A DNA stretch of 64,000 nucleotides. Source: Pseudomonadota bacterium. Lineage in GTDB: Bacteria; Pseudomonadota; Alphaproteobacteria; Rhizobiales; JAKSCL01. The notes beneath the pieces were generated by a model, which did no database searches, was not told the DNA's origin, and saw only the letters and a program-made list of their open reading frames with translations. A program made the position numbers and the translations under genes. Of the stretch, positions 19,329 to 59,405 are shown piece by piece; position 1 is the stretch's first letter; each line of letters opens with the position of its first letter. Location: NCBI GenBank assembly GCA_039026395.1, contig JBCCMK010000007.1:1623-65622 (forward strand). The letters are read 5' to 3'.

Positions 19329-19810
19329 AGGTGTTTGATCCGGTCGAGCACGCCCTGAAGGATGTAAGCCGCCGCAGCTGCATCAATCCGTGCTGCCCGC
19401 TTCTTGCGCGAGATATCGGCGTCGATCATGGCGCGCTCAGCGGCGACAGTGGAAAGGCGTTCGTCCCAAAACACGATCGGTAGAGCGAAAAACCCTGCGA
19501 GGTTCCGCGCAAACTGGCGAGTTGATTGCGCCCGTGGCCCCTCTGTGCCGTCCATATTGAGTGGCAGACCAAGCACAAGCCCGCACGCGCCTTGTTCCTC
19601 GCAGAATTCTTGTAACTCAGCCGCGTCCTGGCTGAACTTCCGACGCTTGATGACGCGGCTGGCTGTCGCGATCCGCCATTCGACGTCGGATAGCGCAACA
19701 CCGATCGTCTTTGTCCCCAGATCGAGCCCCACGAGCGGGCGCCCCCTTCCAACCACAGCGACGAAGGCGGTGAGGTCGTCAAAGACCGTTTCTGGCATGG
19801 GTTTCGGCAT
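19325..19810 (-). CDS. ruvX: RuvX/YqgF pre-16S rRNA nuclease
   Basis: GLDLGTKTIGVALSD, GLPLNMDG, WDERLST and IDAAAA. Confidence 0.95.
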   Translation of the reverse strand: MPKPMPETVFDDLTAFVAVVGRGRPLVGLDLGTKTIGVALSDVEWRIATASRVIKRRKFSQDAAELQEFCEEQGACGLVLGLPLNMDGTEGPRAQSTRQFARNLAGFFALPIVFWDERLSTVAAERAMIDADISRKKRAARIDAAAAAYILQGVLDRIKHL

Positions 19811-19914
19811 GGAAAACCGGAGAGTGGGAAGGGTTTGCGGTCGCTTGAAGGTTGTGACAACCATTCGGAATACTTGTCAACGAAGCGGCTTGCGCTCGAA
19901 CGGGGAGGACCCTC

Positions 19915-55892: not shown

Positions 55893-56666
55893 TCAGTCCT
55901 CGAACTGCTCGCGAATGATGCGTTCGTCCAATGCACCATCTGGGTCGAACATCATCTCCATCCGATGAGAATGATCCTCTGAGACGGTTACTGATCGGAT
56001 GTTTCTGAACTCGAAATGGTCTGCAGCTGCGCTGACCAAGCGTTCCGTGGGATCTTTCACTTCGATGTGGACGGTCACATCGTTTGGAAGAAGGGCTCCG
56101 CGCCAACGCCTCGGGCGAAATGGGCTGATCGGGGTGAGAGCAAGGAGCGGTGACTTGATCGGGATAATTGGTCCGTGGGCTGACAAATTATAGGCTGTTG
56201 AACCCGCGGGTGTTGCGACCAAAACGCCGTCACACGCGAGTTCCGCCAGGCGAACCTTGTCGTCCACCGATATTGAGAGTTTTGCCGCTTGATAGGTCTG
56301 CCGGAGGAGCGAAACTTCGTTGATCGCGAGCGCTTCATGCGTCTCGCCATCAATGTCGACTGCATGCATGGCGAGGGGATGGATCTCGTTGCGTGCTGCC
56401 GCTTCCAAGCGTTCCGGTAGGTCCTCTAAATGATAATCATTCATCAAGAAGCCGACGGACCCCCGGTTCATCCCATAAATCGGCTTTCCGCTGTCCATGT
56501 GGGCGTGGAGTGTCCGCAGCATCAGCCCATCGCCGCCGAGGGCAACAATGTGGCTGGCGTCTTGGATAGGCGTGTTGCCGTAACGCGCGGTAAGCTCGTA
56601 GAGCGCGCGGCGGGCGTCCTCGGTTGGACCGGCTACAAATGCGATTGCGTGGGAGGAGTGCGACAT
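55893..56666 (-). CDS. NAD kinase
   Basis: LGGDG, GSVGFL, INEVS and [20 protein letters not shown]. Confidence 0.95.
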
Positions 56667-56715
56667 CTGCGAAGCTTGGCTTAGGCGAGTGAGCTATCCG
56701 CTTGCGCGACTTGTG

Positions 56716-56791
<76 letters not shown>

Positions 56792-56801
56792 GTTAATCCG
56801 C

Positions 56802-56830
56802 TCATTACGGGGTTCGTCGCTGAGGCGCAA
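56802..56830 (-). promoter_or_regulatory. Sigma-70-like promoter of tRNA-Thr
   Basis: TTGCGC-N17-TAATGA on the minus strand. Confidence 0.55.
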
Positions 56831-56833
56831 GCG

Positions 56834-57103
56834 CTAGGTTGAGGACGCATACTCCTGATGTGTTTGGCGTCGGAAACGGCAAGAAGCTGGGGGTAATTTG
56901 AGTGCAGAGCGGGCTTCTTGCCCCGGTCAAACTCAAACTGCCTTCAGATTGAAGCCGTTTCGACGTCTGTAAGATGGGGTAGATTTGCTCGCCTGCTTGT
57001 TGCAAGACCTTGAAAGTCAGGGAGACTTCCTGCGGTCTTGCGCCGTGCAGGCAACCAAATCTTCACCCACCAAACGCACCAGAACTATGAGTTCTCGACC
57101 TAG
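56834..57103. mobile_element. Non-autonomous MITE-like element (270 bp)
   Basis: CTAG at both ends; 34-bp imperfect terminal inverted repeats (27/34 identical); two internal long hairpins; no transposase. Confidence 0.75.
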
Positions 57104-57873
57104 GATGCAGCGAGGCCTGTCGCGATCGTCAATGCGATTGCAGTGGCGTTGGAAACGTTGAGGCTTGTGACTCCGCCGGGGAGGGGGATTGAAGCAAGGC
57201 GCGAGCAGGTGGCGGCGGTTTTCTGCCGAAGGCCTTTGCCCTCAGCCCCAAGTACAAGAGCAAAGGGTGTCCCGGCATCGACGGCAGCCAGTGGCTCGGT
57301 CGCCTCGCTGTCGAGACCGATCGTAACGAACCCGAGGCTATTCAGCGTTTCGATCGCGCGCGAGAGGTTCGTCTCGCGCGCCCATTGCACATGTTCGAGG
57401 CCGCCTGACGCCGCTTTTGCAAGAACGCCAGTTGCTGATGGCGAGAAGCGCTTTGTCGTGACGATTGCTCCAACATTAAATGCTGCACCCGTTCGAATGA
57501 TGGCGCCGACATTGTGTGGATCCGTAACCTGGTCGAGAACGAGAACTGGTTTAGACAAATTGATTGCGTCCAATTCAGCGTCTTCGAGTGGTTTGCCGAT
57601 GGCCAATAGGCCTTGGTGCACGGCATCCGGCGGCGCGATCTTCGTTATTGACGCGGCTGAACTTTCAACTCTTTCGACGGTCTTTGGGAGCGAAATACCG
57701 TCAAGGTGGCGATTGGCGTTCTCCGTGACGTAAAGCCGGTCGAGATGACGTAATGGGTTTTTCAGCGCCTCTTGAACGGTATGGACGCCGTACAGAATTG
57801 CGGTTTCCGGCGCGTCGTCGCGGCTTTGCCTGGGTGGTCGCCGGTTTCGGTGTCGGTCGCTGCGCTTTGCCAA
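57100..57873 (-). CDS. rlmB: 23S rRNA 2'-O-methyltransferase RlmB (TrmH/SpoU family)
   Basis: LYGVHTV, VHQG, LDQVTDPHNVGAIIR, LGAEGKG and SLNVS. Confidence 0.9.
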   Translation of the reverse strand: MAKRSDRHRNRRPPRQSRDDAPETAILYGVHTVQEALKNPLRHLDRLYVTENANRHLDGISLPKTVERVESSAASITKIAPPDAVHQGLLAIGKPLEDAELDAINLSKPVLVLDQVTDPHNVGAIIRTGAAFNVGAIVTTKRFSPSATGVLAKAASGGLEHVQWARETNLSRAIETLNSLGFVTIGLDSEATEPLAAVDAGTPFALVLGAEGKGLRQKTAATCSRLASIPLPGGVTSLNVSNATAIALTIATGLAAS

Positions 57874-57984: not shown

Positions 57985-58069
57985 GGAGGAGTGCCCGAGT
58001 GGTTAAAGGGGACGGGCTGTAAACCCGTTGGCTTAGCCTACGTTGGTTCGAATCCAACCTCCTCCACCA
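57985..58069 (+). tRNA. tRNA-Tyr(GTA)
   Basis: GGAGGAGTGCCCGAGTGGTTAAAGGGGACGGGCTGTAAACCCGT...GTTCGAATCCAACCTCCTCCACCA, with a long variable arm. Confidence 0.98.
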
Positions 58070-58076
58070 TTGGCGC

Positions 58077-58150
58077 GCGGGTATAGCTCAGGGGTAGAGC
58101 AACAGCCTTCCAAGCTGAAGACGCGGGTTCGATTCCCGCTACCCGCTCCA
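58077..58150 (+). tRNA. tRNA-Gly(TCC)
   Basis: GCGGGTATAGCTCAGGGGTAGAGCAACAGCCTTCCAAGCTGAAGACGCGGGTTCGATTCCCGCTACCCGCTCCA. Confidence 0.98.
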
Positions 58151-58214: not shown

Positions 58215-59405
58215 TCAAAGGCCGTCTTCTATAGCCTTCAGGATCGTGAATCTCAGGCGACCGGTGCGCCCCGGGAGAGCAATCACGAAGCGAACAAGGC
58301 CGTTCGCCTCAGTCTGGGCATAGCCCGCGAGCGTACTGACAGTGTCGAGAGTTCCCGTCTTATAGCGAGATCCCTTTGGCGAACGTTCCATCAACTCGGC
58401 ATACGGCGCAAAGCTGTTGAGGAGTTCAGCCAGCCCCTGCGCTGTCATGCGATTTTCTCGGCTAATCCCTGATCCTTCCACCATCGAGATTTTGTCCGTC
58501 AAACCGCGCGTCTCGAGCAGTTCGGCGAGCACACGCTTTGATTTCGTCAGGTTGGCCGGCGCTCCCATTTCTTGCGCTCCCACGTCAAGAAAGACCTGGT
58601 TTGCAATGTAGTTGTTGGAGCCCTCGAGCATGAGGCGAACAACTTCGGACATCTGGCGGGATTGTCGGTGGATATAGACGGGTTTGAGAGCAGGCGGGAC
58701 ACGACCGGTCGATATTTGACCGTCTACGTCGCCGCCGGACTGCCGAACGAACGCCGCTATCAGCTCGCCAGCGTAAAGCGCGCTGACGTCTGCATTGCCT
58801 TGCGCAAGACTGATGCGCGACCGACCGTTTGGCGCTCTCGTTCGGAACTGGGTTCTGGCGAGCGGCGTTATTGGCGTTTGGTCTTCCGCTGAACGCACGA
58901 TATCGCCATTTCGAACCGCGTGAATGGTGTTGAAATTCGCGGCAAGTGCGGAGACCGATGCGTTGTAGGATTCGTTGTTGTTGACGACGCCTGGTATTGC
59001 GAGAGCACTCGGAAAATAGCTCGTATCTAGGACCAAGCCGTTCAATGGCTTCGTCCCAACGGTCTCTACCAAACGCTCTGCGATCATCGCCAGTTCTTCA
59101 GACACGAGGAACGGGTCGCCGCCACCGCGGACGTATAGAACGCGGTTAGCATCGAGGTAAAAACGCGTCTCGAACCGATAATTTCCTCCCAACTTCTCCA
59201 TCGCGAGCCAAGCCGTCACGATTTTGGCGACTGATGCGGGGACGAATGGCCGATCCGCGTTCTGAGACACCAAAACGCGTCCGGCTTCATCAACGACGTG
59301 AACAAGCCCATTTGGCGCCAGTGTTCGCACTCGGTCTTGGATTTGCTCAGATGCAACCGAAGCAGTTGAGAGAAGGAGAAACCCGAGGAGGAGAGCTTGA
59401 AACAC
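58215..59405 (-). CDS. dacB: D-alanyl-D-alanine carboxypeptidase/endopeptidase (PBP4, peptidase S13)
   Basis: Signal peptide; SxxK (PASVAK), GGGDP, SNN, EGSGISR and KTGT. Confidence 0.88.
   Translation of the reverse strand: MFQALLLGFLLLSTASVASEQIQDRVRTLAPNGLVHVVDEAGRVLVSQNADRPFVPASVAKIVTAWLAMEKLGGNYRFETRFYLDANRVLYVRGGGDPFLVSEELAMIAERLVETVGTKPLNGLVLDTSYFPSALAIPGVVNNNESYNASVSALAANFNTIHAVRNGDIVRSAEDQTPITPLARTQFRTRAPNGRSRISLAQGNADVSALYAGELIAAFVRQSGGDVDGQISTGRVPPALKPVYIHRQSRQMSEVVRLMLEGSNNYIANQVFLDVGAQEMGAPANLTKSKRVLAELLETRGLTDKISMVEGSGISRENRMTAQGLAELLNSFAPYAELMERSPKGSRYKTGTLDTVSTLAGYAQTEANGLVRFVIALPGRTGRLRFTILKAIEDGL

Follow-up and report, generated by a model that had tools for sequence, protein, structure and literature searches.

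A Y-shaped repeat, very probably an IS427-derived MITE, in the CTAG site that holds an rlmB stop codon

Several families of bacterial MITEs possess a structured core and are located in or beside transcripts, among them ERIC, Correia/NEMIS, the Rickettsia palindromic elements (RPE), and RUP. Insertion at CTAG with duplication of TA is characteristic of IS630 and IS870, and the IS427 group of the IS5 family shows a preference for YTAR targets. IS711 of Brucella is a further example of the IS427 group. As described for Paracoccus (Alphaproteobacteria), elements of this group are 832–865 bp long and contain two frameshifted ORFs, and 2-bp duplications are given for nearly all members listed, one of which has 4 bp (PMC3281130, Table 2). 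Against this background, we analyzed a repeat found in a 64,000-nt stretch of DNA from an alphaproteobacterium of the order Rhizobiales (contig C7 of the assembly), which we refer to as the window.

The repeat was originally predicted as a 270-bp, CTAG-bounded unit with complementary ends and two interior arms that fold into a Y. An inverted-repeat search recovered the same 34-nt ends (56834-56867 and 57070-57103), complementary at 27/34 positions (79%), together with both arms. Arm 1 (56866..56967; tip GAGCGGGC-TTCTT-GCCCCGGTC) contains an inverted repeat in which 56873-56903 matches 56931-56961 at 74%, and arm 2 (56976..57068; tip CCTTGAAAGTC-AGGGA-GACTTCCTGCGG) contains one in which 56976-57009 matches 57034-57067 at 76%. 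The minimum-energy fold is the same Y on either strand (–134.4 and –133.6 kcal/mol; z = –9.9 and –10.5), and none of 200 dinucleotide-preserving shuffles was equally stable. With one to four stop codons in each of the six reading frames, the focal copy has no coding capacity.

We searched the genome, which consists of 82 contigs with a total of 2.9 Mb and is rated 75.6% complete, for further copies of the 270 bases. BLAST identified seven full copies with 88-100% identity to the query (on contigs C7, C52, C12, C14, C1, C5, and C28) and pairwise identities of 0.88-0.97 among each other, which confirms that the repeat is multicopy. This family, termed F1, also includes two internal-deletion derivatives, one without arm 1 (C47) and one without positions 92-203 (C17), four pieces cut by contig ends (C65, C2, C39, and C76), and two solo ends on C25. 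Stop codons are present in all frames of the F1 copies. At C40:28743-28987, the end of the contig passes through arm 2 of an F1 copy and then doubles back, so that the flank appears on both sides in inverted orientation; the hairpin most likely led to an assembly artefact here.

The flanks of the seven full copies follow the pattern Y-TA|GGTTGAG...CTCAACC|TA-R. TA is the only direct repeat that is consistent across these copies; it is found on both sides of five of the seven, with one side mutated in the copies on C1 and C5. The mobile unit therefore comprises the 264 non-coding bp from 56837 to 57100; of the CTAG at each end, one half belongs to the target and the other to the element. The predicted repeat is thus real, but it is shorter than proposed and the duplicated sequence is TA, not CTAG. 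In the window, the left TA (56835..56836) lies within the CTAG at 56834-56837, and the right TA (57101..57102) was placed by flank alignment and by the empty-site contig described below. The terminal inverted repeats accordingly span 56837..56867, with the tip GGTTGAGGAC.CAT, which is an IS427-type tip, and 57070..57100, as defined by the inverted-repeat search and the flanks of the copies. Based on the flanking bases, the targets were CTAG, TTAG, CTAA, and TTAA, i.e., YTAR.

An allele with a single, empty CTAG was identified in metagenomic data. A 1003-nt contig of run X4 (depth 10.6) joins position 56833 directly to 57100 and thereby skips 266 bases, which corresponds to the 264-bp unit plus one TA; as CTAGG is present at both ends, the exact junction may lie anywhere within these five letters. 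Relative to the window, 2/88 and 29/601 positions are changed in the flanks of this contig. A strain that is ~95% identical hence carries the empty site, which reads ...GCG CTAG GATG... and in which both the CTAG and the TAG stop codon of rlmB are intact. The empty site may mean that one lineage gained the element by insertion, or that the other lost it precisely. The orthologous site is also empty in G002, a relative from another genus of the same family: here, tRNA-Thr and the rlmB homologue are 53 bp apart and the element is absent, and the block GGCGCAAGC beside the left end is common to the window and G002. In the metagenome runs X1-X4, the element sequence (56817-57098 of the window) reaches a summed contig depth of ~50-580 compared with 7-20 on the flanking genes, indicating that these marine metagenomes are rich in F1-like sequences, which are present in many copies or in many organisms.

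The right end of the element abuts an rlmB-like gene encoding a SpoU methyltransferase (57100..57873, minus strand; Pfam SpoU_methylase, 1.9e-34, and SpoU_sub_bind, 4.8e-07). Its stop codon TAG is the reverse complement of 57100-57102 and is composed of the target TA and the terminal base of the element. The original prediction that the element carries this stop codon is correct with regard to position, but the stop predates the insertion: it was regenerated, not created, since the G of CTAG gave way to the terminal G of the element. On the left side, a 42-nt spacer (56792..56834, minus strand) separates the element from the gene for tRNA-Thr(UGU) (56716..56791, minus strand; ARAGORN, and Rfam tRNA with 73.4 bits), which is followed by an NAD kinase gene. 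The spacer harbors the block GCTTGCGCC, which is conserved in G002 and represents a candidate promoter. A –35 element of the tRNA-Thr promoter had been proposed 3 nt from the left end; it was not confirmed, as a consensus scan yielded no promoter-like site in 56600-57300. A scan for terminator-like sites was likewise negative. In the empty allele, 4 nt separate the rlmB stop from the conserved block that precedes tRNA-Thr. With the insertion, a very stable structure of 264 nt stands between the two, and both genes are unchanged, as had been predicted. The element might alter read-through from rlmB into the tRNA gene, create an RNase III site, or do nothing; the originally suggested influence on rlmB mRNA or pre-tRNA processing would be one possible consequence. 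Just beyond rlmB, the window contains the genes for tRNA-Tyr(GUA) and tRNA-Gly(UCC) (57985-58150, plus strand) and a Peptidase_S13 gene of the D-Ala-D-Ala carboxypeptidase family (58215-59405, minus strand; 396 aa).

Profile and BLAST searches revealed two sister families, F2 and F3, which share the ~268-nt architecture and reside in the same genome. F2 (tip GGGTCAAAACCCAATCA) is represented by two copies, L062 (C56:4359-4626) and L063 (C20:10522-10791), and by four full copies in G002. F3 (tip GGGTCAGGACCCATTAAT) is more numerous, with the seven copies L064-L070 (C9:51901-52168, C6:51359-51626, C2:89079-89346, C25:20785-21052, C25:40093-40360, C44:7017-7284, and C20:50585-50818) and three longer variants of 359 nt each (L071, C29:8331-8689; L072, C56:9462-9820; L073, C48:13629-13987). 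These variants contain an extra hairpin of ~91 nt exactly at the junction of arms 1 and 2, so that the structure has three arms; no other place in the genome contains this insert. At two further loci, C6:51699-51716 (CTAGGGTCAGGGCCCTAG) and C28:10474-10491 (CTAGGGTCAGGACCCTAAG), a solo 12-nt tip palindrome is found between two TAs, and these sites may represent F3 elements reduced by extreme deletion or the footprints of their excision. Altogether, the superfamily accounts for 16 full copies, three long variants, and about nine partial pieces in this genome. An open frame through the MITE, as expected for a translated element, is present in 5 of 23 superfamily copies compared with 2.75 ± 1.5 in shuffles, and this possibility was rejected.

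The distribution of the three families extends beyond this organism. Allowing up to two mismatches, the F3 tip was found in 89 of 401 genomes sampled from the order, and a reversed control pattern gave three single hits. A search of genome contigs with the 21-nt F1 end returned two loci, one of which (L038) is a true copy with 75% identity; the other, in a Pelotomaculum MAG, was rejected as a chance match. The 45-nt F1 end yielded only chance hits (E of 2-8) against plasmids. Four plasmid copies in Nitratireductor and Phyllobacterium lack a repeat or mobile-element annotation: three lie under no feature and one, a partial match, lies under a dehydrogenase CDS.

The position of the focal copy at a stop codon is not an isolated case. 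At 10 of 20 copies in the own genome, an ORF of at least 100 aa ends in the target TA plus the G of the element; in family F1, this applies to six of the seven full copies and to the C17 derivative. All eight stop-abutting ORFs tested contain Pfam domains, which are of the enoyl-ACP reductase type, FGGY kinase, 3-hydroxyisobutyrate-dehydrogenase type, aconitase family, DJ-1/PfpI, AzlD, AsnC regulator, and cysteinyl-tRNA synthetase. Elements abut stop codons because they begin with G and so regenerate TAG. On C12 and C28, the TAG codons of convergent genes are found at both ends of the element, and the two genes must therefore once have shared a single CTAG. With 1816 sites, CTAG is the rarest palindromic tetranucleotide in the genome (observed/expected ratio 0.63 under a Markov model, 0.17 from base composition); 13% of the sites (234) are located on stop codons of ORFs of at least 150 aa. 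The enrichment at stop codons is as expected from target preference and loss of intragenic insertions, and no special mechanism is needed.

Each of the three MITE families shares its tip with an IS427-type insertion sequence. In genome G174, both ends of the F3 tip occur ~850 bp apart in three copies flanked by C-TA...TA-G. This element contains a DUF4096 ORF (4.7e-20) and a DDE_Tnp_1_2 ORF (7.9e-16), with AAAAAAAG in between as an A7G frameshift site, and it resembles full-length elements annotated as "IS5 family transposase" in 154 plasmid records, mostly from Rhizobium, Sinorhizobium, and Agrobacterium. In the own genome, the transposase profiles PF13358 and PF01609 had no match, and relics of such elements were found only by protein searches with the two G174 ORFs. 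The relic on C2 consists of the last ~125 bp of an insertion sequence and ends with ...GAATGAGTCCTCAACC|TAG (also written ...GAGTCCTCAACC|TAG), which is the 14-nt tip of F1. A degraded insertion sequence of ~970 bp on C25 (~1143-2113) has a left tip equal to that of F2 over 17 nt. The third relic, L054 on C46 (~19700-19900, minus strand), is an internal-deletion derivative of ~190 bp with GGTTGAGCACTCATTCAAGTCCAGGC at both ends. Both ends of L054 are intact and only the last ~35 transposase codons are left, so that it appears as a "classical" MITE in the making, unlike the Y family.

A metagenome scan with the F1 tip returned at least 121 stretches, most of them chance matches. In 5 of 80 loci examined, an IS427-type transposase is encoded directly behind the tip, for example in L121 (CTAGGTTGAGAACTCATAC...GAGTCCCCAACCTAG); both L121 and L165 carry the tip GGTTGAGRACTCAT together with such a transposase. 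Look-alikes of the F1 element were found at none of these 80 loci, and the exact 22-nt end of the relic insertion sequence had no match in metagenome contigs. The identity between F1 and the insertion sequences covers the first 14-16 nt of the ~31-nt inverted repeat and then stops, and the 75.6%-complete assembly contains only relics but no intact IS427-type element with the F1 tip. Of the matching ends that had been expected for a partner insertion sequence, it is the tip that is shared. The interiors of the MITEs and of the insertion sequences show no similarity, and a covariance model of arm 2 matches no IS body; thus, the F1 element is not a simple deletion derivative of an insertion sequence. 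In G174 (contig C1; L046, 1270-1600), an IS427-type copy lies immediately next to a Y-type MITE, with one TA common to both (…CCTGACCC TA GGGTGCGGACCC…), which suggests that the YTAR sites re-formed at the ends of elements in turn act as targets for insertion.

Based on these observations, the repeat at rlmB is very probably an IS5/IS427-derived MITE, i.e., ordinary selfish DNA, inserted in the CTAG of which the rlmB stop codon is part. It is small and non-coding, has terminal inverted repeats, is flanked by a TA duplication, occurs in dispersed copies, and is missing from an observed empty allele. The IS427 group is indicated by the 2-bp TA duplication in YTAR/CTAG, by tips that start with GG, and by the partner elements, which encode DUF4096 and DDE_Tnp_1_2 with a frameshift. 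That IS427-type transposases actually move the F1 element, as the original prediction of a non-autonomous repeat mobilized in trans with an IS5 lead implied, we infer from the shared tips. The element has no gene of its own, and its terminal inverted repeats carry the tips of the ~850-bp elements, which the transposases of the latter would recognize. An IS427-type transposase (DUF4096 plus DDE_Tnp_1_2, expressed by programmed frameshift) would act in trans and insert the 264-bp unit into YTAR, in this case CTAG, thereby duplicating the central TA. As CTAG is rare and intragenic insertions would be purged, surviving copies would pile up at TAG stop codons that supply the target. With G as the first base of the element and C as the last, TAG would be rebuilt on whichever strand carries the gene. 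At rlmB, the insertion would have split the 4 nt between the rlmB stop and the upstream region of tRNA-Thr without changing either gene.

A second explanation adds to the MITE reading and does not replace it: the Y core could be a selected functional module and not passive filler, which we regard as rather unlikely. Such a core could act as a single-stranded DNA or RNA structure for mobilization, or as an orientation-independent 3′ structure that stabilizes or insulates the transcript of the adjacent gene, and it would have passed between MITE lineages that use different IS427-type ends. We evaluated this possibility with an alignment of 23 sequences of F1, F2, and F3 from the own genome, G002, G026, the MAG L038, and a Nitratireductor plasmid. 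The three families share an almost gap-free alignment of 274 columns with a constant length of 267-271 nt. RNAalifold predicted 66 pairs, 48 of which show compensatory changes; in the terminal stem, compensation only reflects that both ends must fit one transposase. In arm 2, both sides change in 18 of 29 pairs, and 87.9% of the cells pair compared with 74.5% in shuffled alignments. The covariation score of this arm is 0.384, compared with 0.161 after shuffling and 0.06-0.10 with slid partners; as the sequences are related, the shuffle controls overstate the significance of these differences. In addition, half of the copies are sited where co-transcription with a gene must occur.

Arm 2 is the best conserved part of the superfamily. 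Its tip (CCTTGAAAGTC-loop-GACTTCCNGCGG) is 0.59-0.88 identical between families, compared with 0.41-0.57 for the ends, and F1, F3, and the Nitratireductor copy have the tip motif of arm 1 in common. Different arms can occur in families with the same ends, which means that the elements are mosaics whose ends and arms have different histories. The covariance model of arm 2 matched every copy in the own genome and nothing outside the MITE context; in a sample of 150 other families of the class, four contained matches, including a complete Y-shaped element in G498. The sole match near an insertion sequence is the MITE that adjoins the IS copy in G174.

The focal copy itself contributes little to this argument. 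The original prediction had read its many G-U-compatible deviations as a sign of selection on the folded strand, but they are mainly transitions of an aging copy: five of its 11 differences from the F1 consensus are located in the ends, whose complementarity has dropped to 26/33, as in the copy on C5, compared with 30-31/33 in five of the six other F1 copies. The focal copy is thus among the most decayed of F1 and, judging from its ends, probably no longer mobile. What survives of the claim are the compensatory changes between families in arm 2, which point to selection on pairing.

Several observations argue against a functional core. Neither folding energies nor G-U counts revealed a consistent strand preference, and in copies at stop codons, either end of the element can point toward the gene. 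For the same reasons, a strand-specific RNA is unlikely and was rejected. The locus lacks a terminator-like site, and the element has no match in Rfam: within 56600-57300 only the tRNA passes, and five further copies reached chance-level scores of 18-24 bits compared with cut-offs of 37-90. Moreover, template switching between the arms of a palindrome, an established process in quasipalindromes, can yield compensatory changes without selection. We therefore give only limited credence to the idea of a conserved, functional Y cassette of fixed length, with compensatory stems and almost invariant arm tips, that across the Alphaproteobacteria became joined by recombination to the ends of several IS427-type insertion sequences. 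Such a cassette may serve as folded single-stranded DNA for mobilization, as a landing pad for a host factor, or as an orientation-independent transcript insulator that makes insertion at gene ends harmless. If this were true, the success of a MITE would depend on its own structure and not only on borrowed ends. A purely selfish cut-and-paste model does not account for arm tips that are better conserved than the ends recognized by the transposase.

The TA duplication in CTAG would also fit a MITE of the IS630/Tc1-mariner kind. However, for each of the three MITE families, the insertion sequences with matching tips encode DUF4096 and DDE_Tnp_1_2, i.e., they are members of the IS5 family, and the 75.6%-complete assembly contains no match to DDE_3 (PF13358), which makes this origin highly improbable. 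A locus-specific non-coding RNA gene, a regulatory 3′UTR of rlmB, or a leader of tRNA-Thr, as the very stable fold and the position between two RNA-related genes might suggest, is already refuted by at least seven full copies at unrelated loci, by the site being empty in the ~95% identical strain and in G002, and by the missing Rfam match, and has practically no likelihood left.

The identification of the element as very probably an IS427-derived MITE has practical consequences for annotation, because such elements are present without annotation at about 27 sites of the 2.9-Mb assembly and in many genomes of the order. Assemblies are interrupted where contigs end in these elements, which could moreover be misread as genes for small RNAs. 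They also provide a clean example of how a rare target such as CTAG, purifying selection, and a terminus starting with G place a transposon on stop codons while the genes remain undamaged. In line with the assumption that the repeat is uncatalogued, we found no match in Rfam and no description of the F1 family in the open-access literature searched, also with the literal end and tip strings.

Compared with the known systems, the element resembles ERIC, Correia/NEMIS, RPE, and RUP in being small, non-coding, bounded by inverted repeats, multicopy, foldable, and often co-transcribed. As these families are generally described, it differs from them in its ends, size, and target and in being tied to TAG stop codons; unlike ERIC-like MITEs, it forms a two-arm Y whose tips are conserved across families with different ends. 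With IS870 and IS630, as they are generally known, it shares the target tetranucleotide, the 2-bp duplication, and the interplay between CTAG and stop codons, but their transposases belong to the DDE_3 family, which is missing from this genome, and the tips of the element match the IS5 type. The closest relatives are found in the IS427 group of the IS5 family (e.g., IS427, IS1248, ISPpa2, and ISPpa6), in which the tips also begin with GG and TA is duplicated in YTAR/CTAG. The partner elements identified here, with ~850 bp, DUF4096 and DDE_Tnp_1_2, and A7G, agree with this group in size, repeats, and ORFs, as far as these are described for its Paracoccus members (PMC3281130). In contrast to the IS427 group, the element lacks a transposase, shows no interior similarity, and shares only the first 14-16 nt of the ~31-nt inverted repeat. 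It is hence of a known kind, an IS5/IS427-derived MITE, and its only unusual feature is an interior that is better conserved than its ends.
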